Below are positions 36,882 through 59,300 of a DNA stretch of 64,000 bases, in pieces. The DNA comes from a virus. Positions within the stretch are counted from its first letter, which is position 1; the number at the start of each line of letters is the position of its first letter. Both the position numbers and the translations under genes were made by a program. The stretch is taken from IMG/VR virus record IMGVR_UViG_3300028394_000034; one strand, given 5' to 3'. The notes beneath the pieces were generated by a model. It saw only the letters and a list, made by a program, of their open reading frames with translations, did no database searches and was not told the origin of the DNA.

Positions 36882-36900
36882 TTTTTAATAGGACTTATTG

Positions 36901-39900
36901 ATGTCATTAACTATAAATAAAAAAATAGCATTAGTAGAATATTTAGGTCCTACAAAAAATATTTCTGCTCTTACTAATGTTTCTGAAATTGACATAATAT
37001 ATAAAGTCAATCCTAATGGTAATGGATACGTTTCTTGGAAGAGTGGTAGTCTTTTTAATTTTCTTTCGACATTAGATGGCCCAGCTGCTGCAACCGTTGG
37101 TGGATCAGTAGAAACTTCTTATTATATCATAATTAGCAAAAGTGACAACCCTAATTATGAACTATATAGTGAATCAGATAGATTAAATAGTAAAGATACT
37201 ATAAATATAGATAAACAAATAGTTATTGTCAAATATCCAGGATCCACAGATTTAACTTTATCTATAGCTCCTTTTAAAAATTATGTATCAAAAATATACA
37301 AAGTTGGAGATACCGGTACTTCTTGGCAAGTTTGGGATCCTAATTCTAATTTTAATGCAATTACAGCCCTTAATACAAATACTATCTATTTATTTCTGTC
37401 ACAAAGTTTTCCTTATAATTTATGGACGATTGCCACCCCAACACCAACACCAACGTTAACTCCAACGCCAACAAAGACTCCAACAGTTACTCCAACAATA
37501 ACACTAACTCCTACAATAACACTAACTCCTACTCAGACACAAACCCCATCAATAACTCCAACAAAAACTGTTACTCCAACAGTTACTCTTACTCCAGGAA
37601 TTTCTCCTTCTCCAACTCCTACGATAACCCCTACTATAAGTGTAACAGCTACTAGAACCCCCACAGTAACCCCTACAGTAACCCCAACACAAAGTCAAGA
37701 TATTTGTATAACTGCTCCTGATAGAGCTATTTACTTTGGAGATCAAGAAAGTATTGGAAAAACTTATGGAGGAGGATATCTTGCTGGATATATATTAGAT
37801 CCAACAAATGCTACTCGTGGATGGGCTTTGATTGTTGCCGAAATAACTGGGTATGCAGAAGGTAATCATTTAAACTTAGGAACCACTTTACTTCAACCAT
37901 TACCAGCTAGTGGTCATTTTTATGATGGGTCTGCTGTTATGGCAAGTGGTCTAGCAGCAGCTAGTGCACAAGGTGTTGATTTTGATACAGCATTGCCAGG
38001 TATGGCTTTTTGTAATAATCTAAATATAGGATTCACACCCTATCAAGGATATGCTGACTGGTATTTACCATCAATATATGAATTAGAATTAATATATAGA
38101 AATTTTAAACCAACAACAAATATTAATGATATTTTAAATTCTAATGGATTTAATAGATATAGTATTCCAGAAGGAGCAGCATACTCCCTCTCAGATCCCG
38201 CACAAACTTCTTGTCGTTCTTGGCAAAATAACGGTGCTGGTTTTATAGGCAATAATTCTTTGATTGATACTAGCAAATATGCAAACAGTAGTCTATTATC
38301 TTCTACTCAAACAGCTACTCCTCAATTTGCTGGCGCTGGAACTAATGTTTGGAGAATTGCTTATATTGATCCTAATAATGGAAATTTCCGCAATTGGGAT
38401 ATATATGAAAATATTAATACTAGTTCTCCTTTTACAGTCAAGCCTATCAGAAGAATAAGTCTACTTACGAATATTACCCCAACTCCAACAAAAACTCAAA
38501 CTCCAACCCCAACAGTTACTCCAACTATCACAATAACTCCGACGACAACAGTAACTCCATCGGTAACTCCAACAAAAACAGTAACTCCTAGCGTAACTCC
38601 GACAATTACTCCAACTATTAGTGTTACTCCCACACTAACTCCAACTGTGAGTATAAGTCTCTCACCAACCCCAACACTAACTCCTAGTCCTACAAAAACA
38701 GTAACTCCTACAATAAGTCTAACTCCCACAATAACCCCAACAGTATCTATTACTCCTACTATTACTCCTAGTTTACCAGCTGATTTAAATACAGTAAACT
38801 ATAATAATCTTGCTATTTTTAATGGAGCAGCAAACTTAACTACGGTAGGTAGTAATGGAGGACAATCATATTATGGACTATATGATATGTCTGGAAATGG
38901 ATCAGAATATATCGGAGATGGATCTAACACATATGTTATTGGTGGATGCTATAACTCATCAGCAACAGATATTAGTAAAAATGCATTATTGAGCGCAACA
39001 TATTCTATAGCAGATGCTTCCACTAGTTTTAGAATAGCTTCTATTAATGATGAGGTTTCTGTTGGAAATTTTGTGACTATTGGAGACGCCGGTAATAATA
39101 ATGATGCTAATGGTAGAGGTGGCGTATCTTATGTTTATAGACTTGGTAAATATCTAGTAACTAATGATGAATATTGTGCTTTCTTAAATAGTGTAGCTAG
39201 AAATTCTGACAATAGAGCTCTTTATAATCCTAGTATGAATTCTGATGCTGTTCGTGGAGGAATATTCAGAATATCTACTATTAGTGGATCAACAGTGACC
39301 TACACCTACGTTTGTAAAACAAATTTTGGAAATAAACCAGTAAATTATGTTTCTTGGTTTGATTGTGCTAGATATTGCAATTGGTTACATAATGGAGCAC
39401 TATCTTCTAGCGATACTGAGACTGGGGCTTATACTTTAACCTCTTTAGTTCCACCAACCAAAAATTCTGGGGCTAGATATTGGCTTCCATCATTAAATGA
39501 ATGGTATAAAGCAGCATATTTTAAAGGAGCAGCACCCGGAGCAGGATATTGGACATATGGAACTAAATATGATACAGTCCCATCTTCAGTAATAGCAAAT
39601 TCTATTGGAGAAGGCCCGTATACCACAGAGAATGAGACATTCCCTCCTGGAAAAATATTCATTTTAACAAACTCTAGGCTTGTTAGTATTGATAATACTA
39701 ATAACTCTATTAAATTTATTGATGGTATTAATTCTACAACAGATTCTATCGTTCTTAGTAGAGATCAAAAATTAGCATTCATATCCAATAATACAATCGG
39801 TGTTGATGTTGTTGATATTTCTTCTTCTAATCAATCAGATTTTTCTGTTATAGCTGGCATAGGAGCAGGATCAAATCCAACAAAACTATTAGTTAATGAT

Positions 39901-41922
39901 GATGGTAATAGACTTCTTATTGTAGGAAACGGATCAAATACAATAAGACTAGTAGATATTACAAACACTCTGTTTTCAACTACAAATATTATACCAAATC
40001 CTTTTACTTCTAATTCCTATATAGATGCATGTTATGGATCTGATTCCAATACTATTTATTTGTTGTCTTATAAAGGTTTTCCAGATTATAGTAATTCTCT
40101 TTATCTATTAACCATGAATAGTGATGGGACAGTAGCTCAGAATATACTAATAAGGACAATATCCTCTGTATCTTCTCCAGAATTATCAAAGATATTTTTC
40201 ATAGATAATAAGATATACTACTATTCTACTCAAAGCAGTGCTATTAATGTATATAGTTCAACTGGATCTCCACTAGGTTCTATTCCTCTATATATTTTTA
40301 ATTCTGGTTCACTAAGTTCATATAATATAATCTTATTAAAAGCATATACAGATACTATTAAACATAGACTGTATTTATATTGTCGTTCAGCATCTACTAC
40401 TGTTACTAATGTTTTTACTATTAATACTATTAATGATACTGTTATAGGATCGACTGTTGTTAATGGTTCCACTAATTTTGCTGGAATAGTTAGTGGAGAT
40501 GTTTTATCTATTGTTTCTGATAAATATCTCCGAGCAGTAGATACTACAAATAGACAAATTATCAATAATATTGATTTGACTCAATATGGATTAACAAATA
40601 CAGAAATCTCTAATATAAAAGGTCTTGCTTTCAAATCTAATGATCCTCCAAAGTTCACCCCAACAGCAACAAGAACGCCAACTCCAACTCCAACACTAAC
40701 CCCATCAGTAACAGCAACACAAACCCCGACACCCACAATAACTCCAACTAAGACAGTAACACCGACCCCATCATTAACTCCTCCAGAGACACCACCAGCA
40801 TTCGTAAACAATATACTGTCTGCTGTAGGGTTAAATAATCTAGGACAATTAGGAGATGGTACATATAAATCTAAAAATAGATTCATAACTATAACTGCTC
40901 CTTCTGGAGATATTACTTCCACTAATTATCCAATTAGAGCTAGTGCTTTAGGTGACCATAATCTGATTATAGATTCAAATAATAGAATGTGGGGCTGGGG
41001 GGCTAATGATAAAGGACAGGTTGGAACAGCTAATTGGAAAGCAACGTCTATCTTTAATAACGGAAATACTCCCGACAATATCATCTATGATGGAATTGCT
41101 AATAAGTATACATTGTTCAGTTCCAATATATCAAACACTGCCCTTATGTCTAGTGACGGTTTGAGTTGGGGACCAACATCTCTTCCTTCAAACTCCTTAT
41201 GGTCAGCTTCTGCTGGATTTAATACAAAAATAGCAGGAATTCCAGCAAATATAGAAGCATCATCGTTCGTGGCTGCAAATGCATCAAACGTACTGGCTCA
41301 ATATAGTATGAGTACAAATGCTTGGACAACAAAGACATTGCCATCTGCAAATAATTGGACAACAATGACTCAAAATGGATCAAGATTCTTTATCTTCTCT
41401 AGCAATTCTTCTAAAGTAGTATATTTTGTTCCAGCTATTAATCTAGCTTCATTTTCTACAGGAGAAATTAGTCTTGGTACAACCTCTAATAGTATATATT
41501 GGAAATCAGCAGCATCATATAGCAAAAATATTGTTGCCATATCTTATAACAATAATATTATAACTAGAAGCTTAGACTCAGGAAATACTTGGACTATTAC
41601 TAATATGCCGGTATCTGCAAATTGGGAGCAGATTATTTATGTTGGACCTAGATTAATAGCAATTGCCTCAAATTTAGACGCAATCTATATTAGCGAAGAT
41701 AACGGAACAACATGGACACAGAAAAATTTACAAGTTTTTGGTGGATGGTCAAGTATAACCTACTTTAATAATACATTAATTTTAGTTGCAAAAAATGGCC
41801 TATACTACTTGATTAGTTCAGATAGTGGAAATACTTGGAGCAAAAAAATCCTTCCGTCAGGACTATATGTCACACCAACGCCAACCGCTACCTTAACTCC
41901 AACACCGAGTAAGGGTGTATAG
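36901..41922 (+). CDS. Multi-domain adhesin: DUF1566/Lcl C-type lectin, permuted FGE-sulfatase domain, YVTN-like propeller, partial RCC1, BNR-like propeller, Pro/Thr linkers
   Basis: GGGYLAG..FCNNL..GYADWYLPSIYELE (DUF1566); YDMSGN..FRIAS..GKYLVTNDEYCAFLN..NYVSWFDCARYCNWLHNG..LNEWYKAAY (FGE type); NNLGQLGDG/WGWGANDKGQVG (RCC1); SSDSGNTW (Asp-box). ATG 36901 fits the AGGA RBS. Confidence 0.75.
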   Translation: MSLTINKKIALVEYLGPTKNISALTNVSEIDIIYKVNPNGNGYVSWKSGSLFNFLSTLDGPAAATVGGSVETSYYIIISKSDNPNYELYSESDRLNSKDTINIDKQIVIVKYPGSTDLTLSIAPFKNYVSKIYKVGDTGTSWQVWDPNSNFNAITALNTNTIYLFLSQSFPYNLWTIATPTPTPTLTPTPTKTPTVTPTITLTPTITLTPTQTQTPSITPTKTVTPTVTLTPGISPSPTPTITPTISVTATRTPTVTPTVTPTQSQDICITAPDRAIYFGDQESIGKTYGGGYLAGYILDPTNATRGWALIVAEITGYAEGNHLNLGTTLLQPLPASGHFYDGSAVMASGLAAASAQGVDFDTALPGMAFCNNLNIGFTPYQGYADWYLPSIYELELIYRNFKPTTNINDILNSNGFNRYSIPEGAAYSLSDPAQTSCRSWQNNGAGFIGNNSLIDTSKYANSSLLSSTQTATPQFAGAGTNVWRIAYIDPNNGNFRNWDIYENINTSSPFTVKPIRRISLLTNITPTPTKTQTPTPTVTPTITITPTTTVTPSVTPTKTVTPSVTPTITPTISVTPTLTPTVSISLSPTPTLTPSPTKTVTPTISLTPTITPTVSITPTITPSLPADLNTVNYNNLAIFNGAANLTTVGSNGGQSYYGLYDMSGNGSEYIGDGSNTYVIGGCYNSSATDISKNALLSATYSIADASTSFRIASINDEVSVGNFVTIGDAGNNNDANGRGGVSYVYRLGKYLVTNDEYCAFLNSVARNSDNRALYNPSMNSDAVRGGIFRISTISGSTVTYTYVCKTNFGNKPVNYVSWFDCARYCNWLHNGALSSSDTETGAYTLTSLVPPTKNSGARYWLPSLNEWYKAAYFKGAAPGAGYWTYGTKYDTVPSSVIANSIGEGPYTTENETFPPGKIFILTNSRLVSIDNTNNSIKFIDGINSTTDSIVLSRDQKLAFISNNTIGVDVVDISSSNQSDFSVIAGIGAGSNPTKLLVNDDGNRLLIVGNGSNTIRLVDITNTLFSTTNIIPNPFTSNSYIDACYGSDSNTIYLLSYKGFPDYSNSLYLLTMNSDGTVAQNILIRTISSVSSPELSKIFFIDNKIYYYSTQSSAINVYSSTGSPLGSIPLYIFNSGSLSSYNIILLKAYTDTIKHRLYLYCRSASTTVTNVFTINTINDTVIGSTVVNGSTNFAGIVSGDVLSIVSDKYLRAVDTTNRQIINNIDLTQYGLTNTEISNIKGLAFKSNDPPKFTPTATRTPTPTPTLTPSVTATQTPTPTITPTKTVTPTPSLTPPETPPAFVNNILSAVGLNNLGQLGDGTYKSKNRFITITAPSGDITSTNYPIRASALGDHNLIIDSNNRMWGWGANDKGQVGTANWKATSIFNNGNTPDNIIYDGIANKYTLFSSNISNTALMSSDGLSWGPTSLPSNSLWSASAGFNTKIAGIPANIEASSFVAANASNVLAQYSMSTNAWTTKTLPSANNWTTMTQNGSRFFIFSSNSSKVVYFVPAINLASFSTGEISLGTTSNSIYWKSAASYSKNIVAISYNNNIITRSLDSGNTWTITNMPVSANWEQIIYVGPRLIAIASNLDAIYISEDNGTTWTQKNLQVFGGWSSITYFNNTLILVAKNGLYYLISSDSGNTWSKKILPSGLYVTPTPTATLTPTPSKGV

Positions 41923-41951: not shown

Positions 41952-44900
41952 ATGGTTAATTTCAGAAAATTAATAACTGGTAATGGTTTTGTACTAGGTA
42001 TCGGAGACGAAAACGATAAATTATACGTTTTTGGGGACGAAATCAATAAAAATTCTATTAGTAGAATGGGAAATGATGGTGATTTATATGGGAGTAGATG
42101 GTCTTCAATTGCTGTAAATTATAAGCATTCCGCCGCTATTGATATTAATAATAAGCTATATATATGGGGAGATAATTATTACGGTCAATTAGGACTTGGT
42201 GGTAGTATATCAAATGCAGTTGACCCACAGCTTCTTAATAATGATTTATGGTCATCGGTTAGTTGTGGAGCGTTTCATACGTCTGCCATTAAAGGAGATG
42301 GATCTTTATGGACTTGGGGAGATAATACTTTCGGACAAATAGGAAACGGAACAGTGGGTGGGAATTTTTCAAAATTCTTCCCTGTACAAATTTCTTCATA
42401 TGATTTTAATACTGTCTCTCTTCTTATGCATATGGATGGAATTGATGGAAGTTCAGTATTCACAGATAGTTCATTCAGAAATTTCACCTTGAACAAAGTT
42501 GGATCTCCTGTGATCTCTACAGTTCAAAGTAAGTTTGGAAATTCTTCTTATTACAAGGGAACATCATCTTCTTCTTGTCTTTATACTATAGATGATGCTT
42601 TTAAGTTTGGATCTGAAGACTTTACTGTAGAAGCATATGTATATTTGATTGGAGGAAGTTTAGGCTACAATATTTTAATGGATACTCGGAAAACTAGCGA
42701 TGGTTCTGGAGGTTCTTGGTTTGGAGTCTATAATGGTATGCTCTATTATGAAGATAAACCAACAATTAGTATGCCTACTAATAAATGGGTTCATGTTGCT
42801 TTTGTTAGAAGCTCAGGATCTTTAAAGCTATATCTAGATGGAGTTTTAGTTTATACCATAACTTCTACTATAGATTATAGTTCAGGATATTTTTCTCTAG
42901 GAGGAGCCAGCTACTCTTCGTTAGGAGCAACTCCATTTAATGGATATATTGACGAAGTAAGAATAAGCAAAGGAGTTCCAAGATACTTAACCAACTTTAC
43001 TCCAACAACAGTCCCATTTACCAATATTAATGAAGTTTATACTAAGGTAGTTAGTGGTACAAATTTTAATATTGCTATTAAAAATGACGGGACTTTATGG
43101 TCATGGGGAAATAATACCTATGGTCAATTAGGACTATCAGATAATCTTTCTAGATATATTCCAACTCAAATAACAGGAACTAACTGGGCAGATATTTCTT
43201 GTGGGGATGGGCATGTTATTGCTATAAAATCTAATGGAGAACTATATTCTTGGGGATATAATCAAAATGGAGAATGTGGATTAGGAGATAATTCAAATAA
43301 AAATGCACCTAATAAAATCACACTCCTTAAAGCGAATGATAGTCCAATTAACTTAGTTGGAATAACTGTAGACAATCAAAAAAGAATAGCCTGTGGAAGA
43401 AACCACAGTTTTATCATCGCAAATACTGCTGGTGTAAATAATGTTTTATATGGAACAGGAAAGAATGATAATGGACAATTAGGAACAGGAGACAGTATAG
43501 CGAAAAATTTCTTTACTGCTATAGACTTGAGTAAACGACATCTTTCTGTTAATGCTGGAGCAAGTCATAGTATTGTTAAGCTAGATATTCCTGCTAATCA
43601 GCCTACTCCATCTCCAACCCCTACATCTACCGTTACTCCTACTGTAACTCAAACAATTACTCCTACAGTAACACCAACTGTTAGTATTACTCCAACAATA
43701 ACTCCAACTAAGAGTGTTACTCCAACGGTAACCCCAACAATATCGTCATCCCCAATACTTACCAGAACTCCTACTCCAACAGTAACTCCTTCTCAAACTC
43801 CGCCCTCAAGAATTGGTAAATTTTGGATACCAATGACCGCTCTAAGTAAAGTTTGGAGCGGTATAGCCTACTCATCATCTCTAAATAAATTTATAGGGGT
43901 TCCTATTGGAAATATAGGCATGGTTAGTTCGGTTGGCGTAGGCAATTCTTGGCAAGAATCCAATCTTCTGCCTAACTCCATAATATGGAATGTAATTGAC
44001 GGAGGAGACTTTATCTTAGGATATGGACCTAACACACTATATACTGCAATAAGTAATGATGGATTTACTTGGGCTCCTGGTCCTAATTCTCGTCAAGATA
44101 CTCAGTCTCAAGAAGGATCAATTATTAGTACCTCTAAAGTAGGAAATCAGATAATATCTCTTACATATCCGCTTGATGCTATTTCTCCATTAGGTTATAG
44201 AATTCTCAAAAAAGACAATTCATCTTTAGTTTTTTCAAATAGAATATACCATAAAGACTCTAATAATAAGAATATTATCTATAAAGATAGTGCTAATTGC
44301 AATAATGTTGCTAAAACACTAACTGACGTAAGATACAATGGAGGACCCGGACCATATGGTACTTATGATATGGGAGGGAACGTTTATAATTGGACAGATA
44401 CTACAGCAGGATCTTATAAAGTTTATAGAGGTAACAATTATCTCAGTAATTTTAATACCTCTAGAAATTATAGTGTATCCCCAACAACAACTGATGGTAG
44501 CATAGGAGTTAGATTTGTTACAACTCAAAGCTCTCCATCTTATAGTTCTTTTGTTTCTGTCGGAGATGCTGGAAATAGCGGAAATTCTGGATATGGTGCC
44601 GTCTCATATAACTATAAGATTCAAAAATATCCAGTAACGTGTTCTGAATATGTTGAATTTTTAAATGCTGTTGCTTTAAATGGTGATCCAAACTCATTAT
44701 ACGATCCCTTGATGAGTGAATACTCCGTACCATATGGAGTAAAGAGTCAAATAAACTTATCTTCTGGAACTTCAGGATATCCTAGAGTACTTTTAGTTAA
44801 AGATGTTTTTCTTTATGTTATTCATTATCCTATTGGTGGTTCGTATATAGAAGTTATAGATACTAGCACAGATACTATCGTTAAACAAATTCCATTCGGA

Positions 44901-47279
44901 GGAGGCGGGGCATCTGATATTTTTGCAGTATTTAATTCAGATAAGACTAAGATATATATTCATCCTTATGGAAGTTATTTTATTTATGAACTAGATACAA
45001 CGACTAACACAGTATCTACTATGACTAGTCTTTTCCAAAGTTCTACTTTTAGTAATGTTTGGTCTGACATGATATATGATCAAACAAATGACAGACTTTT
45101 ATTTTTATCTTGGGGAGCTTTTGAGGTCAAAGCATTTAATTTAGCTACAAAAACTGCTACTACCATAATTAAAAATTCAACCACAACTTTAGGTTTTATT
45201 TATAGATCCAATGCGTTTTTGTATAATAATAAACTATATGCATTAAGTTCTACATATAGTAGTCTTAATACAACTTCTGGAACATTATCAGTAATTAATT
45301 TATCAAATAATACATCAACAAACTATGCAATAGATAGCGGACCACTCAGCTCAGGCTTTAATGAAACAACAGGCAAAATATATATTGGTTGTAATAATTA
45401 TTCTACTACTACAAATAAAATAAAAGTATTTGATATTGCTCAAAACTTATTCGAAACAGATATTAGTTTAAATTTAGGATCTAGAAGAATATATAAATTC
45501 TTAGTAGATAAAACTAATAATAAAATTTATGTATGTGGAGGAAATACTAGTGGAGGCTTTGTTATTACTATTGTTCCAGGTCCTGTTTCTGCTTCTGTTT
45601 CTTTATTAGATATTAATTCTAATATAGAGTCTATAGCACTAGATAGCACAAAGAATAAACTGTTCGTTTCTTCACAATCTTTGACAGGTATCGGGGGAGG
45701 CAGATATCCAGTAATAGTATCTGTTATAGATACAAGCAATACTACTCTATTAAAAACAACACAACTACCAATAATATTAGGAGCCCATTTAGTTTCAATT
45801 GATTCTTTAAATAAAATATATATTGCAGGAAGTACATTTTCGAGTTTTTTTACTGGTTCTGTGGTATCAATTTCTTCATTATCAGGGACCTACTCAGTAA
45901 AGAGTGGATTAGATTATTATCCAGCAAGATACATAAATTTCTACAATGCTGCAAGAATGGCTAATTGGCTTAGTAATGGAAAACCAACAGGTACCCAAAC
46001 AGCATCGACAACAGAAAACGGGGCTTATAATTTAAGTGCAGGAAATACTGGGACACCAGAAAGGAATACTGCTAATCCTAATACTGGAGGAGGAGCGCCT
46101 TTATATTATATAGCAAATGAGAACGAATGGTACAAAGCAGCTGCTTATAAGGGAGGAAGTACTAATGCTGGTTATTGGAATTATTATACGGCTAGTGACA
46201 AAGCTCCAAAAGCTATTTCTTTAGACTCTAATGGAGAGTCTATTAATTTAGTTCTAAACTCAGTAGCATCAAGAGAAAAAGATGGACTAACAGTTATGGT
46301 TGGAGATGATATTGTTTTAGTTGGTAATCCTATAACAAATGTTTGGACCAAAACAGACATAGCTTTTGCCAGTACCAATAATAGCAATAGCTATAAGAGT
46401 CCTTACCACATACTAATGAATAATTCAAGCACTATAGTAGTGATTCCTAAGAGTGTCTGGCCAAACCCATTACCAACTACTACCTATATTTATAGTACAG
46501 ATAATGGAGTTACTTGGACAGCCGCAACCCTATTTGTTCCGTCTGGGACAACAATAGGGGCTGCAATCTATAGTAATGGATATTTTGTTCTTATTCCAAT
46601 AACCACGACAAGTAGAACTGACTCGGTATATTTATCGACAGATGGAATTAATTGGACATCTTATGATGTCCCTTACCTAAAAGGTAAAACCTGGATAGGA
46701 ATGGCTAGTAAAGAAAATCTAATTGTTCTACTGTCAAATAGTTCTGCTGGGGCAATAAGTTATAGTGACGATATTTTAATAACAAGTCCAACTCCAACCC
46801 CAACAATCACAACGACACCCTCATCCCTTAGCATTTCCATTACTGAACAACCTTTAGACCAGTCCGTTCAACTAAATGTGGATAGTACCTCTGGACCAAC
46901 AGTTATTTTTTCTGTTTCTGCTATTAGCAGAGCTCAAATCTCATATCAATGGCAGCAATCAATTGATAATGGAGTATCTTTTAGCAATATAGTTGGAGAA
47001 AATAGTTCAAGTTTAACCATATCAGATATTACATTAGATGATAATAATTCTAAATATAGAGTAGTATTAACCTCTCCGGGTCTTCAAACAGTTACTAGTT
47101 CAATAGCAACACTAAAAGTATTAACTGGTTCGTGTATAACTATATCTCAACAGCCTGTTGATACGATAGCTTCTAATGCTTCTGTCACATTAACTGTGAA
47201 TGCTCGTATTCCTTGTGCTGAAACTCCAACTCCAACTCCTACTCCAACCGTAACACCATCAGCAACTCGAAGGATTTAA
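41952..47279 (+). CDS. Multi-domain adhesin: RCC1 repeats with LamG insert, BNR-like propeller with nested FGE and YVTN domains, one Ig plus a half Ig
   Basis: Multiple G..H..IK.DG.LW.WG.N..GQLG repeats; VSLLMHMDG..SKFG..DFTVE..WVHVAFVR..FNGYIDEVRISKG (LamG); YDMGGNVYNW..GVRFV..KYPVTCSEYVEFLN..ENEWYKAA; YQWQQS.D.G..YRVV. Confidence 0.75.
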   Translation: MVNFRKLITGNGFVLGIGDENDKLYVFGDEINKNSISRMGNDGDLYGSRWSSIAVNYKHSAAIDINNKLYIWGDNYYGQLGLGGSISNAVDPQLLNNDLWSSVSCGAFHTSAIKGDGSLWTWGDNTFGQIGNGTVGGNFSKFFPVQISSYDFNTVSLLMHMDGIDGSSVFTDSSFRNFTLNKVGSPVISTVQSKFGNSSYYKGTSSSSCLYTIDDAFKFGSEDFTVEAYVYLIGGSLGYNILMDTRKTSDGSGGSWFGVYNGMLYYEDKPTISMPTNKWVHVAFVRSSGSLKLYLDGVLVYTITSTIDYSSGYFSLGGASYSSLGATPFNGYIDEVRISKGVPRYLTNFTPTTVPFTNINEVYTKVVSGTNFNIAIKNDGTLWSWGNNTYGQLGLSDNLSRYIPTQITGTNWADISCGDGHVIAIKSNGELYSWGYNQNGECGLGDNSNKNAPNKITLLKANDSPINLVGITVDNQKRIACGRNHSFIIANTAGVNNVLYGTGKNDNGQLGTGDSIAKNFFTAIDLSKRHLSVNAGASHSIVKLDIPANQPTPSPTPTSTVTPTVTQTITPTVTPTVSITPTITPTKSVTPTVTPTISSSPILTRTPTPTVTPSQTPPSRIGKFWIPMTALSKVWSGIAYSSSLNKFIGVPIGNIGMVSSVGVGNSWQESNLLPNSIIWNVIDGGDFILGYGPNTLYTAISNDGFTWAPGPNSRQDTQSQEGSIISTSKVGNQIISLTYPLDAISPLGYRILKKDNSSLVFSNRIYHKDSNNKNIIYKDSANCNNVAKTLTDVRYNGGPGPYGTYDMGGNVYNWTDTTAGSYKVYRGNNYLSNFNTSRNYSVSPTTTDGSIGVRFVTTQSSPSYSSFVSVGDAGNSGNSGYGAVSYNYKIQKYPVTCSEYVEFLNAVALNGDPNSLYDPLMSEYSVPYGVKSQINLSSGTSGYPRVLLVKDVFLYVIHYPIGGSYIEVIDTSTDTIVKQIPFGGGGASDIFAVFNSDKTKIYIHPYGSYFIYELDTTTNTVSTMTSLFQSSTFSNVWSDMIYDQTNDRLLFLSWGAFEVKAFNLATKTATTIIKNSTTTLGFIYRSNAFLYNNKLYALSSTYSSLNTTSGTLSVINLSNNTSTNYAIDSGPLSSGFNETTGKIYIGCNNYSTTTNKIKVFDIAQNLFETDISLNLGSRRIYKFLVDKTNNKIYVCGGNTSGGFVITIVPGPVSASVSLLDINSNIESIALDSTKNKLFVSSQSLTGIGGGRYPVIVSVIDTSNTTLLKTTQLPIILGAHLVSIDSLNKIYIAGSTFSSFFTGSVVSISSLSGTYSVKSGLDYYPARYINFYNAARMANWLSNGKPTGTQTASTTENGAYNLSAGNTGTPERNTANPNTGGGAPLYYIANENEWYKAAAYKGGSTNAGYWNYYTASDKAPKAISLDSNGESINLVLNSVASREKDGLTVMVGDDIVLVGNPITNVWTKTDIAFASTNNSNSYKSPYHILMNNSSTIVVIPKSVWPNPLPTTTYIYSTDNGVTWTAATLFVPSGTTIGAAIYSNGYFVLIPITTTSRTDSVYLSTDGINWTSYDVPYLKGKTWIGMASKENLIVLLSNSSAGAISYSDDILITSPTPTPTITTTPSSLSISITEQPLDQSVQLNVDSTSGPTVIFSVSAISRAQISYQWQQSIDNGVSFSNIVGENSSSLTISDITLDDNNSKYRVVLTSPGLQTVTSSIATLKVLTGSCITISQQPVDTIASNASVTLTVNARIPCAETPTPTPTPTVTPSATRRI

Positions 47280-47282
47280 CAA

Positions 47283-50200
47283 ATGAGTCTAGCATATCAA
47301 TGGCAAGTTTCAACAGATGGCGGGGTAACATATTCAGATATACCAGCAAATACTCCTGGTGTTACTGGAGAAACTTCTTCTTCTTTGATATTAACTGGAC
47401 TTACAGCCTCTAATAATAAATCTAAATATAGAGTTAGATTATCAGACACCGATGCGGTAACATCTCCTACAAACAGCAAACCAGCAACAATAACAACCGC
47501 CCCATCGGTATCGATTGCTAACCTATCAAACGCTTTTTCTTCAAATGGATCTGCAACTATTACTGTTAGTGCAACATCTGATATTGGTAGTTTATCTTAT
47601 CAATGGCAAAAGTCAACAGACGGAATTAGCTTTATTAATCTTAATGATGTTACTGGATCAGTTTCTGGTTCTAATACAAGCTCTTTGGTTCTAAGTAATC
47701 TTGTTCCAGCTATCGATAATAATACTAAATATAGAGTTGTTGTTGGAGGACAATGTTGTGGTACCACAACTCTTTATAGTAATAGTACCATATCAACATT
47801 AACAGTTCAATCTACTAATCAAACAATAAGAATAATTGCTCATCCAACAGACGAACTGATTATCAATGGATTAGCAACCTTTACAGTTTCTGCAACAACA
47901 ACTAGTGATATCGGTCTTATTAATACTGGATCTGTTATTGGATATCAATGGCAAAAATTTATTAATAATGCTTGGACAAATATTTTAGGTGCTACAAAGA
48001 GTAGCTTAAATTTATCTGGACTAGTAAAAGCAGATGCTAATTCTCAATATAGAGTTGTGGTTTATGACTTCAATGGGTCAATATCCTCTAATATTGCACA
48101 AATCTTTAATAGTAGTACTGTTCCTCCATGCTATCCTCAATGTGGTGGTCAAGGATGGGGAGACGTTCATTATTATATAGAAGGTCCAGGGCGCTCATTT
48201 TTAGCTAGATTAGATGATAATCCACCAGGAGCTAAAAACGAACACCTAATATTGTATATTAAAAATAACAAAACAAATAATGAATATAGATTATCGGCAA
48301 CATTAAAGGGGTGGCCGGTAGTAAGTAATCCCAATCCTTTAATATTTGACAAAATTTACTTTAAAACTTTTGATGGACAACAAAATACAACTAAAATTGA
48401 AGAGCTGTCATTAGGATCAAAAAAAGTTATAGAAAATATAGTCTCTTTTACCACCTCTCCTCTAGTTATGCCTTTTGTATGGGAAATATTGAATCCGACT
48501 AATATTGCTGAAATTAATAATTTAGATATTACTATAGGAGGAGTTTGGTATTGGATTAATAAATCTTTCATAGAATATAAAAAATCAAATCCTAAATTTG
48601 CAAAATTAGGCTGGCCTAATATTTCGGGAGCAGCAGTTGATGGAATAGGCATGGTTTTAAAACCATATTCTATAGTTAGGTCGGATTTTGAAAAAGCAGC
48701 ATCAGCACAAGCTGGATCAGCAGAGTTATCTAAGGTTTGTGAAACTCTTGTTAATGATGATGGTGTTAAAAATTTCTGGCAGGATCTAACAGGAGTATTA
48801 AATCAAATTCCATATGATCCAACTACTGGAAAATGGAAAAATCAAGTAGAAAAAATTATTTGTATAACATCAAACCCGATATCTGCAATAGCTCAGAATG
48901 GATCAGCAACATTTTATTGTTCTAGCAATTACTCTACTGATTTCGTTTGGCAAAAATCTAAAGACAACGGTATTTCTTGGACTGATATAACGTCAAATAA
49001 TGATACAAATTTTATTATATCTGGAGACAAAAACTCAGTACAATCTTCTCTTCAAAAGTATAATTTGACAGTATCAAATAATGGAGAACTATATAGAGCA
49101 TTATTACAGAATAAGAGTATCACAAGCAATTCAGCTAAATTAACCTATACTGCTTCTAATCTTTCTATCCTAACAGAACCAGTTAATCAAAATAGTATTA
49201 ATTTACAAGCTACATTTACTAGTTATGCTAGTGGAACAGCTCCTATTAGTTATCAGTGGTATAAATCTGATAATAATGGTGAAATATTTGATAAAATATC
49301 TGGAGCAGTTAGTTCTGGAATATCTCTTACTAATCTTAATATGAATGATGACGGAGATCTTTATAGAGTAAATATCAAAGACGGAGCAGGAAACTCCTAC
49401 GATTCAAAAATAGCAAAACTAACAATTAATCCAGTTATAACAATAACAAATCAGCCAACTAATCAAACAGCTTCAAATGAAGAGACCGCCACCTTCATAA
49501 CATCTGCAACCTGCAATAACGGAGATATCTCTTATATCTGGGAAATGTCTCATGATGGAAAACAGTTTTCTCCCGTTGGAGGGGGTAGTCCTAGTGGAGT
49601 ATTAGCTTTATCTGGGCTTAAAAGCTATAACAATGGAGATATATATAGGGCAAAAATAATATCTTTACTTAAATCAAATTCTGTTTATACTAACAATGTT
49701 ACTCTTAGTGTTCCAAGAAGCTTATCTATAGCTACCCAACCAACTGATCAATTAGCTATAAATGGAACTGCAACTTTTAGTATAAATGCTTCTACTACAC
49801 AATCTAGTATAACATACCAGTGGCAAAAATCAACAGACGGTATAAACTATACCAATATAGCCCAAGCAACCGGATCTTCTCTTGTTCTTAGTAATCTTAC
49901 TTTACAAGATGACAATACTAAATTTAGAGTTATTTTACAAGATGACAGGGATTACTTAGTAAGTAATACTGCTAATCTAGATACTACTCCCCAAATAACT
50001 ATTACTCAACAACCAACAAGCTACACAGCAACTAATTATAGTGTTGATTTAACCTGTAATGCCACAACTACTGGTGGAGCTATCGCTATTCAGTGGCAAC
50101 AAAGTAGAGGAGATTATGAGTATTATACCAATATTTCTGGAGTAACAGCAACAACAAATAGACTAATACAACAGATTACTCCTGATGAAAATGGCAAGAA

Positions 50201-51290
50201 ATTCAGAGCCAAATTAGATGTAACAGGAGCACGAACAGTATTCTCAGATATTGCTACAATAACTGTTCCTCAGAGTATATCTATTAATACTTCTAATACT
50301 GATGTTCCAGTATCTAAAAAGGTTAACTATCCAAACAAAGATATAATCCTCTCTATTGATGCTTCTTCAGTCAAACCTCCACTAACTTATCAGTGGCAAA
50401 AATCAACACCAAGTGGATCAGTCGTAGCCTTTAGCTTTGCCAATAACGATATTCTATCTAATAAGGTTCAATTATTGTTAGAGTTTGATGGAACAATTAA
50501 TACTCAAAATTTTGTTGATAGTAGTCAAAATGCTTTAACAGTTAAAGTATACTCAAATAATACTGAAACAACTTCGGCTAATACTTCTTTAAACACTATT
50601 GTCAAAAAATTTGGATCTGCTAGTGCTAAATTTGATACTACTGGAAAATTAAGAGTGATTGACACAAATGATAAGTTAAAATTTCAAAATAATTTTACCA
50701 TAGAATGCTGGTACTATACCTCTTTGCCCCAAGATATGTGTTTGATTAGCAGGAGATTGACTACTACCACATCTAATGGTCAAGAAGGTTGGTTTTTAAC
50801 TCCATTCAGATTTGCTGCTAGATTAGGTTCTGTTTGGAAAGACAATCTAATAGACGATAGAATTTCTATTGATAATATGGATATTAATACATGGACACAT
50901 ATAGCACTCACCAGATCAAATAATACTTATAGACTGTTTCGAAATGGATTATTGGTTGGTTCATTTTATAGCTTTTTACCGCTAGATGAAAATTCTGGAT
51001 CTATTCATATAGGAGATGCTTCAGGAGAAAGCACACAACTACAATGGATTGGCTATATAGACCGATTAAAAATTACAAATGGAGTTGCTAGATATACTTC
51101 TAGTTTTGATCCTAATGCTTCTATTGATAGTAACTATACTTCTTATGGCAATTATGGAGCATATACAGATATATCTGGGGCCAATTCTAATACGTTAAAC
51201 TTAACTAATTTATCTGATATTAATAATGGTGAAAAATATAGGGTTATTTTAACGGATCAAGTTTCTCAAATAATTACAGAGGCAACATAA
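47283..51290 (+). CDS. Poly-Ig protein (about eight full Ig plus an N-terminal half Ig) with VWD-like and LamG inserts
   Basis: Repeated ITxQP...ATFxxxA...YQWQKS.DG...L.L.NL...DN..YRV; GWGDVHY insert; second LamG (VQLLLEFDG..KKFG..NFTIECW..WTHIALTR..GYIDRLKITNG). Confidence 0.8.
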   Translation: MSLAYQWQVSTDGGVTYSDIPANTPGVTGETSSSLILTGLTASNNKSKYRVRLSDTDAVTSPTNSKPATITTAPSVSIANLSNAFSSNGSATITVSATSDIGSLSYQWQKSTDGISFINLNDVTGSVSGSNTSSLVLSNLVPAIDNNTKYRVVVGGQCCGTTTLYSNSTISTLTVQSTNQTIRIIAHPTDELIINGLATFTVSATTTSDIGLINTGSVIGYQWQKFINNAWTNILGATKSSLNLSGLVKADANSQYRVVVYDFNGSISSNIAQIFNSSTVPPCYPQCGGQGWGDVHYYIEGPGRSFLARLDDNPPGAKNEHLILYIKNNKTNNEYRLSATLKGWPVVSNPNPLIFDKIYFKTFDGQQNTTKIEELSLGSKKVIENIVSFTTSPLVMPFVWEILNPTNIAEINNLDITIGGVWYWINKSFIEYKKSNPKFAKLGWPNISGAAVDGIGMVLKPYSIVRSDFEKAASAQAGSAELSKVCETLVNDDGVKNFWQDLTGVLNQIPYDPTTGKWKNQVEKIICITSNPISAIAQNGSATFYCSSNYSTDFVWQKSKDNGISWTDITSNNDTNFIISGDKNSVQSSLQKYNLTVSNNGELYRALLQNKSITSNSAKLTYTASNLSILTEPVNQNSINLQATFTSYASGTAPISYQWYKSDNNGEIFDKISGAVSSGISLTNLNMNDDGDLYRVNIKDGAGNSYDSKIAKLTINPVITITNQPTNQTASNEETATFITSATCNNGDISYIWEMSHDGKQFSPVGGGSPSGVLALSGLKSYNNGDIYRAKIISLLKSNSVYTNNVTLSVPRSLSIATQPTDQLAINGTATFSINASTTQSSITYQWQKSTDGINYTNIAQATGSSLVLSNLTLQDDNTKFRVILQDDRDYLVSNTANLDTTPQITITQQPTSYTATNYSVDLTCNATTTGGAIAIQWQQSRGDYEYYTNISGVTATTNRLIQQITPDENGKKFRAKLDVTGARTVFSDIATITVPQSISINTSNTDVPVSKKVNYPNKDIILSIDASSVKPPLTYQWQKSTPSGSVVAFSFANNDILSNKVQLLLEFDGTINTQNFVDSSQNALTVKVYSNNTETTSANTSLNTIVKKFGSASAKFDTTGKLRVIDTNDKLKFQNNFTIECWYYTSLPQDMCLISRRLTTTTSNGQEGWFLTPFRFAARLGSVWKDNLIDDRISIDNMDINTWTHIALTRSNNTYRLFRNGLLVGSFYSFLPLDENSGSIHIGDASGESTQLQWIGYIDRLKITNGVARYTSSFDPNASIDSNYTSYGNYGAYTDISGANSNTLNLTNLSDINNGEKYRVILTDQVSQIITEAT

Positions 51291-53758
51291 TGACTAAGAT
51301 ATATACTATTAATACCCTAGAAGTATATGCTAATTCCCAACACATAGACGCAAAAGTAGGAGAACCGTTGTCTCTTGTTGTTGATATAAAAATTAATTGG
51401 GTAGATCAAAGTAGTGCTCAAAGAATATTATTTTATCAATGGGAACAATCTTTAGATAGGGGAGTTTCATGGACACAGATTTTATTTGATAAAAATGTTA
51501 GTATGTTTGATGATAGGTCTTCTAATACTATTTATACTAATTCATATCTAGTTAACGGAGAGTTTGATTTTAAATGGGCAAATTTTAACATATTTAGTGA
51601 TCAATCTCCAAAAGCTTATCTTGATACCACTAGAGTTGTAGCTGCTCAAAACCAAGCAAGATATCGATGTAATGTTTTCTTGTATAATGTTGATTCTAAT
51701 ACTATAGAGTCTGTTGCAACCTCAGATACTATGACTTTATATGTTGTAGATGCCAACAATAATCCTATTAAGGATACTGATATTTTATGGGATGGTATTC
51801 CTAATAAAAGACCAAGCAAGGATACTATCTTAGACCAAAATACAGTTATTAAACTATTTAATCCTAATGGAGTTACAAATAACGTTGATATATTATTGAA
51901 TGGAATAAAAATAATTTCAAATGCTGTTTTACCAACATCTTCTAGTAATGCTTTGTCTATAAATCTTGGTAACTATGTAGATTCATTTGATCCCTCAAAT
52001 ATAACGACAGATACAAATTTAGGACAAATTAATGCTGGTCTTAATAGTTTAACTATTCAACAATCTCAAAAAACTACTACTTTTAGTGTTAATCCACGAA
52101 GTAGTTGGCAGTCAACAGGATTGTCTGTAACTAATGGAATGAAGTTAGTAATTTCTGCTGAGGGTTCGGTAGTATGGGGTGGTGGAGGATCCGTTGGACC
52201 AGATGGTGTCTATAATTCTGTATCTCTTGGTCTTGGTGGAGTAAGTGTTGATGCTAGATTTAAACATGAGGCTTTGCTAGGAAAAGTTGGTAGTAATATA
52301 TTTTTGATTGGAAGCTATTATGTTGGAACTATGTCAAGCGCAGGAACTTTAGAAGTAGCTACTAATGATACTGCGAGATCAGACAACTCCGGAAGTTTTG
52401 ATATGACAATCAGTAGTTCTACGATTAAAACTACTCCTATCAGCGTCTTGGCTGTTAAATCTGATGGAGCACTAGCAGACTTATCAACAACGCAAAAAGG
52501 AGTAGCTTCAACTCTTGATGCTAATGGTAATTTAGTATCTAATACTATTAATCCTCCAACTATTGTTAATAGCGATCCATTTACAGCTACTGGAGGTATG
52601 GCATTATTATTCAACTTTAAACCAGCACCACCAGCTTCACCAACTCCCACAGCAACAATAACACCAACAGTAACACCAACTAGCGTAACACCAACACCAA
52701 CAGTTAGTCCTGGAACTTCATCTACCCCAACGCCAACTATTACTACGAGCGTAACCCCAACCTTAACTCCAACAATAACTCCAACAATAACTACATCACC
52801 GACCAATAATAACAACCCAGGAGTTAATAGCGCTAATTGGAAGGCTAGTTCAAATTGGGATGGTACAGATGTTCTTAATCCTTCTGGTAATGTTACTTCA
52901 GTAGGTACTAATGGTGGTCCAAGCGCATATGGAACTTATGATATGGGAGGAAATGTTAGAGAATGGGCTAGTGATCTTTGTACTTGGTCAAATGGAAACA
53001 ATAGTTCAGATATGACAAGATCAATATTTGGATGGGCTTATGCTTCATCAATTTGTCTTTCTAGAAATAAATCAGTAGATTATAGTGCTGGAGATACTTA
53101 TTATAGTAATTCTCTGGGTTTTAGAGTTGTTACTATAGACAATCCGTATAATTTAAGTAATTTTGTTCCAGTGTCGGATACTAATAATACTCCAGACACT
53201 AGAGATTTTAATTCAGCATATCAAGTAGGAAATGTTTCTTATGCCTATAAAATTAATAAATACAAAGTAACAAATACTGAATACGTTGCATTTTTAAATA
53301 GTGTTGCTGTAACTGATACTAATGGTCTTTATGTTGCTGAAATGGGTGTTGTTAGAGGAGGAATAAGTAGAACCGGATCAAGCGGAAGCTACTCATACTC
53401 TGTTAAAACTAATTATGGAAATAAACCTGTAAATAATGTAACTTGGCTCAATGCTGTAAGATATTGTAATTGGCTTCATAATAATAAACCTATTGGAGCT
53501 CAAAGTTCGACTACTACTGAAGGAGGAGCATATACAATAGTATTGCCTCTAGATCCCAATGGAGATAACGGAGATCCCGTTATTCTTCCAACAGCTAATT
53601 CTGGAGCAAAGTATCGTTTACCAACATCAACAGAATGGTGGAAAGCGGCTTATTATGCTGGTGGAGGAACAAGTTCTGGATACTGGGAATATGCTACACA
53701 ATCTAATACTGAACCATCAGCAGCAGGCTGTAATAGTTTTGGAGTAGGACCTACATAA
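51290..53758 (+). CDS. Adhesin: Ig-like domain, LecA/PA-IL-like lectin, Pro/Thr linker, permuted FGE-sulfatase domain
   Basis: FYQWEQS..RYRC; FSV.PRSSWQSTG..G..L.I.AEG..GPDG..ALLGKVG..F.IG..ND..SDNSG; YDMGGNVREW..LGFRVV..KYKVTNTEYVAFLN..TEWWKAAYY. Confidence 0.75.
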   Translation: MTKIYTINTLEVYANSQHIDAKVGEPLSLVVDIKINWVDQSSAQRILFYQWEQSLDRGVSWTQILFDKNVSMFDDRSSNTIYTNSYLVNGEFDFKWANFNIFSDQSPKAYLDTTRVVAAQNQARYRCNVFLYNVDSNTIESVATSDTMTLYVVDANNNPIKDTDILWDGIPNKRPSKDTILDQNTVIKLFNPNGVTNNVDILLNGIKIISNAVLPTSSSNALSINLGNYVDSFDPSNITTDTNLGQINAGLNSLTIQQSQKTTTFSVNPRSSWQSTGLSVTNGMKLVISAEGSVVWGGGGSVGPDGVYNSVSLGLGGVSVDARFKHEALLGKVGSNIFLIGSYYVGTMSSAGTLEVATNDTARSDNSGSFDMTISSSTIKTTPISVLAVKSDGALADLSTTQKGVASTLDANGNLVSNTINPPTIVNSDPFTATGGMALLFNFKPAPPASPTPTATITPTVTPTSVTPTPTVSPGTSSTPTPTITTSVTPTLTPTITPTITTSPTNNNNPGVNSANWKASSNWDGTDVLNPSGNVTSVGTNGGPSAYGTYDMGGNVREWASDLCTWSNGNNSSDMTRSIFGWAYASSICLSRNKSVDYSAGDTYYSNSLGFRVVTIDNPYNLSNFVPVSDTNNTPDTRDFNSAYQVGNVSYAYKINKYKVTNTEYVAFLNSVAVTDTNGLYVAEMGVVRGGISRTGSSGSYSYSVKTNYGNKPVNNVTWLNAVRYCNWLHNNKPIGAQSSTTTEGGAYTIVLPLDPNGDNGDPVILPTANSGAKYRLPTSTEWWKAAYYAGGGTSSGYWEYATQSNTEPSAAGCNSFGVGPT

Positions 53759-56372: not shown

Positions 56373-59300
56373 ATGCCAACTCAGCCTTGTACCTATGATA
56401 AATTAATAGCTCAAACACTATTTTTAGGAGCTAGCGTTTCTAGTTTTAATACTAGTGTTGGATGGGGAAGTCAAGCGTCTCAGCTTACAGTTAATCTAAT
56501 AGAGGATAACGAATCAGTCCCAAACTGCTTACATCCATCAGGTAATGCGGATCCCAGCTATTTGTCTCAACAATTTGGAAATGGAAATATTATTCCAAAC
56601 TTGATTCAGGCTGATACTGGACAAGATTATGCTAGATTTTCAGATAATCACTATGAGGATTGTGTTGGAAATGCTTGTTATGTAAATACTTATGGAGAAC
56701 CTTTTACTTCAACCATGAGATTAGAAGATCGAATGATACCAGGAAAAGTTTATTATCGATTTCCTGGAGGTATTGGTAATGGATCAATATTACAAACCGC
56801 CACGGCAGCTGCAACATACGGTTTACGAAAACCAGCACTTCAATCTCAATACTGGTATAATCCTGATCCTGGATTTTTTGGTGTTCCCAACAGAATAAAC
56901 CCAGATAACTCATATTTACGACAGTATTCTGGTACTGCTCTAAATAATGGATATGATATAATTGATACTCCTGTTATTTTTAAAATGGGAGATTTCTCTT
57001 TTGGTGGAGTGGTTCAATCTTGGAATAAAAATTTGAGTGCTGGCGGACGGAGCTATAGCGTTGTTATTAATAGTATGACTAGCGTATTAAATAATTGCTA
57101 TATTATTCTTTCTCAATATGCTGGATCTCTTTATAGTAAACTGCACTCTGCTACATTTAATATTGATTTAACAAGAACTGAAGTCAATTCTATTTTTGGA
57201 GGACCAAGAAACTATACCGGACATGCTTCTGGGAATATTGATTATTTTGGACAAATATATGAAGGCAATCTTCCAAATGTATTTAATGTTTATGGATTTT
57301 TAGAGTCTATGGGTATGGACCACTTTGGAGGTTCAAGATCCACCAGTGACGGCATTTCTGCTAATAGTGTTTTGGATGCTTTGAGCGTATTAACTTCAAC
57401 TTTCCCATCTGACGATGGAGGAGGTCCTCTTTTAACTTATAGAGCAGGGAACTCTCTTGTTGACTCTCATGGAGAGGTTGGAAAAAGAACAGCTTTTTCT
57501 CCTTTTGGTAGAATAATAACAAAGTGTATGCAAGAAAATGATACCTATACTCAAATTACTAGTGCTTTTAATAGATTTGGAGTTATTCCTCCTACAACAG
57601 TATTAAACGATGAAACAAATACCTCTGTTTCTCAGAGTGCTAAAAGTGATAGATGTCAATTTGTTTTAGACCTAAGTGAAATCCCCAGACTTCCAAATGA
57701 TTTTAGAGTCCCAGGTCCTGTAATAAGTATTACTGATTTAATCAATTTAGTTACTGAACAAATGGGCTGTGACTATTATGTTGATTTGGTTCCACTATCT
57801 ATTAACGATATTTTATACAATGTCATTAAGATTAAAATAATATCTAGACTAAAACAACCAAGACAAAATGAAATTAGCAATACTATTAAAAAACTTCAAT
57901 GTGCTGGTTATGCTATTAGTTCAGCAACAACAGGAAAAGAAAAAAACGAAACTAATGCTCGTAGTATGATAGTTGGAGGTCCTCAACAAAGACTATATCA
58001 AGCTAAGAGTTATAGACTAGCATATACTCAAAATAATTTTATTTTTAATCCTAGAACATATCAATTCGTTGATTATATGCAGTTGGGGACTTTTGATGCT
58101 TTAAATAATATGACTAGATCAACCCATATTACGGGAAGAAAACAATTCCATTATGGGAAGATAAAAACCCCAACAGCTTTTTCAGTTAGAAATAAACAGC
58201 TATCTGATATTATCAATCCTGCTTATAGTGGGTTATACAAGCACGAAGAAGAAGTAAAAAAAATAATTCCTGGAATAACATATGATTTTAGTACTAAAGA
58301 CCCCAAATGGAGTGATCGTAACCAAATATTAGGAAATCAATCAAGTAAATTAACAGGAAACTATGCAGAAGGAATTATAGTAAAGCAGGAAGAAGTGGGA
58401 GCTAATGCTGAAGACGTTAGTACATGGGGGGATGCAAGAAATCAAAGATATTTCCCTATTCATAGAGATGTTATTTGTCCATTCTTTGGTTTTGTAATGG
58501 AAAATGAGCTACAGCTTAATACTAGTGGAGACAATAATGATTTTAGAAGAATTAGACCAGTATGGTTTGATACATGGACTGGGCAGATAGTTGTAGTTTT
58601 AAGAGTCGATGAACTTCCAGTAACATCAGCAAATTTAGAGGGTATTTATGGTAGTGGAACAAAATATTTCTTATTAACAGAATCCGAAATAAGAGCAGCT
58701 ATTGCTGGTTTTGATAACTTTGTTGTTTATTGTTTATCCAAAGACTATAAGCCAGATCTTATAGAAATGCTAAGAAATGCTTACGTTATAAAAACCGCAA
58801 AACAACTGAAAATAGCAAATCCTAGCTGGTCATCCTCATATGCTTGGAAGGCTGCTGAAGATGAACACAATTGGTATTGGAACTTGATGAATGGAAATAT
58901 TTCTGGACCTTTCGGAAATTCTATTAGAGTTGTTCCTGATAAGTCTGATGGGTCGAGTAAGCTTGGTGAAGAAGTAACAATGGATTTACAAATTCTTCAT
59001 TCGTTCATTAATGATATAGCAAAATATTATGGTAAAAAATATATGGTAATGGCTCCTATGGTCAAATCATATAGAGATGATAGTTTTGCAGATATTGTTT
59101 TGCCCACACAAGCCGGAGATGCTTATGTTTTTAGCGGTGGAGGCTCTCTTCATTACAATTATCAGCCTACTAATGACGGAGCATGGGAAGAACCAGGAAA
59201 TATTATTGATGATAGTATCGCTGTTGGCAGCAAAAATGGATTTGCTCTTAGTGATGACTCCGGGAAAATTAAGCCAATATTAGGATATAATGCTAGTGAA

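Follow-up and report, generated by a model that had tools for sequence, protein, structure and literature searches.

Nested domain insertions in a large putative phage fibre gene: a circularly permuted FGE-like domain split by a beta-propeller

Introduction

Domain insertion is found in about 20% of multidomain proteins, according to a 2026 survey of ECOD and the AlphaFold DB (PMC13114784). The same survey catalogued A1-B1-C-B2-A2 nesting, for example in NdhH, with up to six levels in the Si3 region of the cyanobacterial RNA polymerase RpoC2, and found the guest to be the smaller partner in 77% of insertion events (medians of 115 and 199 residues for guests and hosts, respectively); the word "virus" is absent from it. 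Here, we describe a viral case, gene B (P0001), a single open reading frame (ORF) of 1775 residues at 41952-47279 in 64,000 nt of DNA from the IMG/VR virus record IMGVR_UViG_3300028394_000034 (the whole stretch is called the window below), which encodes a putative tail-fibre/adhesin protein. Like the catalogued nested insertions (PMC13114784), gene B has a host cut by a complete guest that is itself cut, with adjacent guest termini and unrelated folds. Unlike the majority of the survey, its inner guest (379 residues) is larger than the host (275 residues), and unlike the surveyed cases its hosts are two propellers and a permuted formylglycine-generating enzyme (FGE)-like fold, in the setting of a phage fibre gene. 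The architecture of gene B is a new, well-conserved example of an established phenomenon, unusual in its permuted FGE host and in a guest that exceeds its host in size.

It is well established that domains of the FGE/C-type-lectin fold occur in phage receptor-binding proteins and serve as targets of diversity-generating retroelements (DGRs) (PMC10743442, PMC5758913). Gene B shares with the phage and bacterial surface proteins Mtd, TvpA and tentaclins (PMC10743442, PMC5758913) a non-enzymatic domain of this kind in a phage receptor-binding context, together with Ig-like domains, and the profile matches TvpA (2y3c); it departs from them in a segment order of C-N-M instead of N-M-C and in the whole propeller carried by a hairpin. 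With SUMF1 (PDB 1y1e/2aft) it has in common the motifs DMxGNVxEW...GFR, KYxVTxxEYxxFLN and PVxxVSWxxAxxYCNWL, but the domain lacks both catalytic cysteines, has its segments in permuted order and is part of a structural protein. The BNR-like propeller of gene B resembles stand-alone propellers (P0179-P0188; BNR_2, DUF6242 and Sortilin-Vps10-like) in blade type, Asp-box and total length (~337 residues), but a 654-residue guest separates its blades 3 and 4, and its Pfam scores are below the cut-offs. Within the limited literature collection searched, we found no report linking circular permutation with FGE, and no phage receptor-binding protein with comparable inserted domains or propellers.

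The layout of gene B is, from the N-terminus, RCC1 units 1-3, LamG, RCC1 units 4-7, a Pro/Thr-rich linker, BNR blades 1-3, a first FGE-like part, an eight-bladed propeller, a second FGE-like part, BNR blades 4-7 and an Ig-like region. All features discussed below are on the + strand.

Results and Discussion

An FGE-like domain split at a hairpin

The Pfam FGE profile PF03781 matched gene B with 31.4 bits (cut-off 23.3) and covered residues 789-833 only. Two other genes of the window encode uninterrupted FGE-like domains: the very large upstream neighbour, gene A (36898-41922), at residues 631-902 (38788-39603; profile match), and gene D (51290-53758), at its C-terminus, residues 530-811 (52877-53722; blastp and profile). 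By blastp, residues 779-917 and 1316-1428 of gene B aligned co-linearly to residues 524-681 and 705-818 of gene D, and residues 785-946 and 1281-1429 aligned to residues 642-805 and 766-905 of gene A (E 1e-15 to 1e-17). Profiles for three FGE segments were then made from the orthologue alignment: a C-like segment (residues 779-858; 44286-44525), an N-like segment that ends in SSGTSG (859-933; 44526-44750) and an M-like segment that restarts at TYSVKSG (1313-1432; 45888-46247), named after the C-terminal, N-terminal and middle parts of canonical FGE. The last two were delimited by blastp and profile comparison. All three profiles matched contiguously in gene A (631-716, 721-786 and 803-902) and in gene D (530-616, 621-686 and 702-811), with E-values of 1e-9 to 1e-29. 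The pieces of gene B are complementary, C and N followed by M, with nothing doubled or absent relative to the uninterrupted copies. Taken singly, they gave E-values of only ~0.1-0.3 by phmmer against PDB sequences.

The split point was mapped to a hairpin turn that reads ...RGGIxR-SGSxG|SYxYxxKTN... in 13 aligned uninterrupted copies and ...SSGTSG|TYSVKSG in gene B; in the same alignment the loop beside the split hairpin also accepts small indels. Among 28 related viral loci, the gap between the N-like and M-like segments was 40-110 nt in 25 (L004-L028) and ~900 nt in the three orthologous copies L001-L003, the only ones to carry the insert. In these alignments the FGE-like domain of gene B is interrupted at the hairpin by what is modelled as a complete propeller.

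A first-pass annotation of this DNA had read the FGE domain as split at SGTSG|TYSVK by a ~380-residue YVTN propeller, and had named the copies in genes A and D and the insertion sites in homologues as the places to check. The break lies where it had been put, both pieces map contiguously on the uninterrupted copies, and the coordinates agree with ours to within a few codons.

Circular permutation and lack of catalytic cysteines

Pfam placed residues 789-833 of gene B on positions 164-225 of the 255-position FGE profile, so that what is C-terminal in canonical FGE leads here; the C-like segment as a whole was assigned from PF03781 profile positions 164-252 and from a profile match to the C-terminal parts of FGE and SUMF2 in the PDB. 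The profile of the uninterrupted copies matched FGE, SUMF2, TvpA and further chains from the PDB (E 1e-6 to 1e-11) in the same swapped order, its positions 13-75 aligning to the C-terminal ~70 residues of the PDB chains and its positions 107-250 to their N-terminal half. The order C-N-M, not the canonical N-M-C, was found in genes A, B and D and in most related viral loci. The FGE-like domain of gene B is thus circularly permuted, a feature that was not part of the first-pass annotation. All three FGE-like domains of the window (38788-39603, 44286-46247 and 52877-53722) are C-N-M circular permutants.

Database homologues included domains in canonical order (P0130, P0168, P0171, P0129 and P0142), tandem FGE arrays (P0036, P0038, P0044 and P0047) and permuted copies at protein C-termini (P0112, P0127 and P0151). 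These arrangements fit an origin by duplication and trimming, which is how the permutant probably arose. A permutant cut in a loop has adjacent termini, the geometric requirement for a seat in the loop of another domain.

The FGE segments contain no invariant Cys in eight orthologues; gene B has lone, non-conserved Cys residues at 783 and 897. At the site that reads YCYRYRC in human FGE, the FGE-like family of gene B has no Cys. The domain is a non-catalytic, lectin-like scaffold and no enzyme.

The inserted propeller

We modelled residues 620-1610 with AlphaFold2 (AF2) from an 8-row alignment (mean predicted local distance difference test, pLDDT, 47.5). The folded parts of this model were the insert and the C-terminal BNR half only. 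The insert (residues 934-1312; 44751-45887) had 32 strands at pLDDT 60-86 and is, as modelled, a complete eight-bladed beta-propeller. It aligned over its full length to the eight-bladed Rsa4/NLE1 (VIA Z 31.3, root-mean-square deviation (rmsd) 2.7, 330 residues), as well as to Cdc4, BamB and Tako8, and Foldseek also listed 1l0q, an archaeal YVTN propeller with 18% identity. The lactonase/YncE propeller families PF10282 and PF21783 are listed, without positions, for the orthologues P0004 and P0005. The propeller of the first-pass annotation stands, as a complete eight-bladed one; its family label, YVTN, is plausible but unproven and stays tentative because the insert of gene B itself has no family match above threshold.

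The insert is also the least conserved segment among orthologues: its identity is 21-33%, compared with 41-71% in the FGE host (57-69% for the M-like segment), and its length ranges from 303 to 383 residues, roughly seven versus eight blades. Identity to P0003 is 60-80% along the protein and falls to ~20-25% at residues ~1060-1280 (45130-45790), inside the insert. This divergence hot-spot suggests accelerated evolution or cassette exchange, which the present data do not distinguish. The innermost propeller is probably the most exposed and fastest-evolving part of the protein and the main determinant of fibre binding.

Two observations concern this propeller in related sequences. In P0037, the first half of the propeller profile finds two matches in the inner propeller, suggesting an internal duplication. 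The public gene call for the gene B protein on a near-identical twin contig of 199,884 nt (P0035, 736 residues) begins at residue 1040 of gene B, inside the propeller, which may reflect a truncated call or a sequence difference.

The BNR-like propeller as predicted outer host

The FGE-like domain is flanked by two BNR-like pieces of 159 and 178 residues, together (~337) about one stand-alone propeller. The N-terminal piece (residues 620-778; 43809-44285) comprises a strand with GKFW, which would close the ring, and blades 1-3; the C-terminal piece (1433-1610; 46248-46781) comprises blades 4-7, with ~15 modelled strands, and ends in AISYSD. A search with residues 1433-1610 retrieved stand-alone BNR-type propellers of 302-426 residues (P0179-P0188), and hhalign against the stand-alone alignment gave probabilities of 97.6% (E 3e-12) for the C-terminal piece and 91.5% (E 9e-7) for the N-terminal one. 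The Asp-box S-x-D-x-G-x-x-W was found at residues 701, 1515 and 1562, in degenerate form at 664, and as a cut motif made of residues 1603-1606 and 622-625.

This cut Asp-box lies at the outer ends of the two pieces, which are invariant in the orthologue alignment: AISYSD (S1603-D1606) on one side and G..W.P (G622, W625 and P627) on the other. Together they make up the AISNDGFTWAP of a normal blade. When the C-terminal end was linked artificially to the N-terminal start in nine orthologues, the stand-alone propeller profile ran gap-free through the junction in every one of them, pairing, for instance, SAGAISYSD|GKFWIPMT with tkiayStDnGvTWtsgt. The C-terminal half was modelled by AF2 as ~3.75 blades and is not closed. 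The two pieces would thus form one seven-bladed propeller by the usual "velcro" closure, the last blade being completed by the first strand, and with the BNR ends closed in this way the FGE-like domain would be inserted after blade 3 and before blade 4. This nesting is supported by the cut Asp-box and by the size of the pieces. We found no uninterrupted copy of this propeller in the window by profile search, no intermediate with an FGE-like domain but no inner propeller in a BNR host among the ~300 proteins examined, and no usable match for residues 620-778 in the ESM Atlas.

A LamG domain within RCC1 repeats

The N-terminal part of gene B comprises RCC1 units 1-3 with the first strand of unit 4 (residues 1-150; 41952-42401), a LamG/concanavalin-like lectin domain (151-358; 42402-43025) and the remainder of unit 4 with units 5-7 (359-548; 43026-43595). 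The RCC1 families PF00415 (168.6 bits, cut-off 21.7) and PF25390 (205.7 bits, cut-off 150) matched in five and two stretches, respectively, next to RCC1_2 and WD40_RLD, and the register of WG.N..GQLG gives seven units. Unit 4 runs from residue 132 to 394, with LamG lying between FFPVQISS and YTKVVSG. That LamG interrupts the RCC1 repeats had already been proposed; Laminin_G_3 (PF13385) scores 59.7 bits (cut-off 27.6; E 4.7e-16) at residues 151-358, within the fourth of the seven units. In a low-confidence AF2 model of residues 1-550, residues 150-347 aligned to lectin beta-sandwiches (domain 4 of AbnA and the lectin domain of trans-sialidase; VIA Z ~15, rmsd 3.1, ~177 residues aligned) and residues 349-547 to UVR8 145-347 (VIA Z 16.2, rmsd 2.8). 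The predicted insertion of LamG in RCC1 is clear by sequence and loosely supported in three dimensions.

Apart from the split orthologue P0204, no RCC1 propeller with LamG was found outside the orthologue group among the best 120 shorter homologues. This orthologue is encoded by two genes of a 29,185-nt Logan contig: P0204 (363 residues) consists of RCC1 units 1-3 and LamG, and its partner P0005 begins in RCC1 unit 4, directly after LamG. Unless a frameshift or an error is involved, the RCC1 propeller would here be shared by two polypeptides.

The C-terminal 424 residues of gene A (40648-41919) gave a partial RCC1-like match and BNR/Sortilin/PSII_BNR-like blades, and may be another composite or interrupted propeller. 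The RCC1 domain of gene B already has seven units and needs no blades from A.

Conservation and mode of growth

P0002-P0008, P0037, P0051 and the single ORFs of L001-L003 all keep the domain order RCC1-LamG-RCC1-Pro/Thr linker-BNR-FGE(C,N)-propeller-FGE(M)-BNR-Ig. At least ten orthologues have this order, with identities in the core down to ~30%, and synteny is kept: the gene is flanked upstream by an A-like gene and downstream by one with Ig and LamG domains. The same order in independent orthologues excludes an assembly artefact and shows that this nested arrangement is ancient and has been kept by selection.

The paralogue A resembles gene B in having a permuted FGE-like domain and a homologous propeller (residues 946-1248; 39733-40641; profile E 1.5e-6, blastp E 3e-4), but in A these are in tandem, FGE at 631-902 followed by the propeller, whereas in B the propeller sits inside the FGE-like domain. 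The homologue P0170 likewise has FGE followed by a propeller. Two orthologues are extended at the C-terminus, P0051 by two extra LamG domains and P0005 by ~390 residues.

The first-pass annotation had gone on to propose a lineage-wide habit of growing proteins by loop insertion rather than by end-to-end fusion. This is not supported, given the tandem FGE-propeller pairs of A and P0170, the appended LamG domains of P0051, the restriction of the insert to the three orthologous copies among the 28 loci, and the Pro/Thr-linked modules and Ig arrays that prevail in the neighbouring genes. The orthologues share all insertion points, which indicates one ancestral set of events and not a recurring tendency. 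The lineage of gene B grows its proteins by both insertion and end-to-end fusion, and no preference for insertion is seen.

Proposed architecture and alternatives

We established the identities and order of the domains, their insertion points and their conservation. In the architecture that we consider likely, gene B encodes a modular adhesin or fibre with two compact, nested heads hung on Pro/Thr-rich linkers. The first head would be the seven-unit RCC1 propeller with the LamG lectin domain in a loop of unit 4. The second would be a seven-bladed BNR/Asp-box propeller, closed by pairing of the first strand, GKFW, with the last blade, ...AISYSD; between its blades 3 and 4 would sit the non-catalytic, permuted FGE/C-type-lectin-like domain, and a hairpin turn on the surface of the latter would bear the complete eight-bladed propeller. 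In each of the three guests (the closed propeller, the loop-cut permutant and the jelly-roll sandwich) the two ends would lie side by side, so that the guest fits into a loop and the chain can re-enter the host. The three-level, Matryoshka-like nesting of BNR, FGE-like domain and propeller that had been suggested from the first reading is thus upheld by mapping on uninterrupted homologues and by an order kept in at least ten orthologues, although the pairing of the FGE halves and of the BNR halves in three dimensions is deduced from sequence.

Several results weigh against this architecture. AF2 did not model the hosts well: pLDDT values are ~20-25 for the FGE pieces and for the N-terminal BNR piece, and no model places the host halves in contact. 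For the first head, UVR8 14-381 is co-linear with residues 1-550 of the model at Z 16-17.6, with an rmsd of ~10 Å and a mean pLDDT of 55.7. Pfam scores for BNR (15 bits against 27) and BNR_2 (15 against 31.4) fall below their cut-offs, with no match in residues 620-783, and no propeller family exceeds its threshold in the insert, where SBBP and Kelch are sub-threshold only. The role as a tail fibre is read solely from gene context and domain types; PHROGs gave domain-level matches only and no orthologous annotated fibre. Moreover, the ring could be closed between subunits of an oligomeric fibre instead of within one chain.

Phage fibres are often oligomers, many of them trimers, and the two BNR pieces might accordingly be two part-propellers or an inter-subunit domain swap, with the FGE-like domain lying between domains and the nesting reduced to two levels. 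The lack of a confident three-dimensional model for residues 620-778 and the weak hhalign match between the N-terminal and C-terminal halves (E 0.022) would agree with this. We nevertheless regard it as unlikely: the halves add up to the size of a stand-alone homologue, the C-terminal half with its ~3.75 modelled blades is no closed unit, and the cut Asp-box is invariant and bridged without a gap by the stand-alone profile in nine orthologues. An inter-subunit swap, for its part, would still build one propeller from both halves. The FGE pieces might also be decayed remnants of two FGE copies on either side of a propeller, a relic of end-to-end fusion that no longer folds together, as tandem FGE arrays are common in homologues (P0036, P0038, P0044 and P0047) and FGE followed by a propeller is present in A and P0170. 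This is very improbable, since the pieces are exactly complementary to each other, with neither duplication nor gap relative to the uninterrupted copies, and are better conserved than the insert (57-69% for the M-like segment), with many invariant residues, which argues for a folded domain under selection; a tandem origin would account for the history of the domain and not for failed pairing today.

Finally, the window is metagenomic, the P0035 gene call begins within the ORF and an orthologue is spread over two genes (P0204 and P0005), all of which might point to a chimeric contig or a false gene fusion. Such an artefact is hardly conceivable for a frame that is open over 5.3 kb (41952-47279) and a domain order that recurs at 30-85% identity in single ORFs from independent sources (JGI, ENA, NCBI, Logan and IMG/VR).

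Implications of the nested architecture

Standard scans detect 45 residues of the FGE-like domain and nothing of the BNR propeller or the inserted one. Nested and permuted domains are thus one concrete explanation for the "unknown" appearance of large phage fibre genes. For engineering, gene B offers three naturally tolerated sites, the RCC1 loop, the BNR inter-blade loop and the FGE/C-type-lectin hairpin, which accept guests of 200-650 residues and could be useful for display scaffolds. The innermost propeller, as the most divergent part, is a candidate host-range determinant in uncultured phages of ~160-230 kb.

More speculatively, the FGE hairpin and the inter-blade loops of propellers may be natural "display sockets", with the innermost propeller serving in this phage lineage as an exchangeable or hyper-evolving specificity cassette of seven or eight blades that leaves the scaffold undisturbed, and with the FGE permutation selected because neighbouring termini render the domain insertable. 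We hold this to be doubtful; if true, display sockets would be a general design rule for the diversification of receptor binding in large phages.

No DGR template/variable repeat pair was found among the DNA repeats of the window, and no search was made for a reverse transcriptase; the window thus holds no sign of a DGR in its repeats. The long DNA repeat families of the window encode Pro/Thr linkers, collagen-like and Ala-rich sequences. A 108-nt repeat pair (D10; 39286/53375, 75% identity) represents nothing more than FGE-coding sequence shared by the paralogues A and D.

Genomic setting

Gene B is a member of a run of very large + strand genes: gene A is upstream of it, and genes C (47283-51290), D and F (56373-63338) are downstream. 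Genes A-D and F are rich in Pro/Thr linkers and in Ig-like, LamG and FGE-like domains, and upstream of the run A-F are a collagen-like tail-fibre gene and a gene of 3606 residues. From this context, gene B is probably a structural adhesin or fibre component of an uncultured large (~200-kb) phage, and its product would be located on the virion and have a binding function. Metagenomic contigs of ~200 kb carry the gene B protein, and its relatives were found on IMG/VR viral contigs 65-180 kb long. By tblastn, cultured phages gave only domain-level matches, below 40% identity and at 19% coverage or less. A tRNA search of the window found none.

The two remaining regions of gene B were assigned as follows. 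The Pro/Thr-rich linker (residues 549-619; 43596-43808) was read from the translation and belongs to Pro/Thr-coding repeat families common to the neighbouring genes. The C-terminal region (residues 1611-1775; 46782-47276) consists of a Pro/Thr linker and an Ig-like part with profile matches to the Ig repeats of gene C, which is filled with Pro/Thr-linked Ig arrays, and with weak Pfam matches to I-set and Ig_3. Between 31200 and 52800, eight or more genes share repeats that code for Pro/Thr linkers. An imperfectly repeated Ala/Lys/Glu-rich stretch was also found at 27200-27620, within the ORF 18133-28953 (3606 residues).

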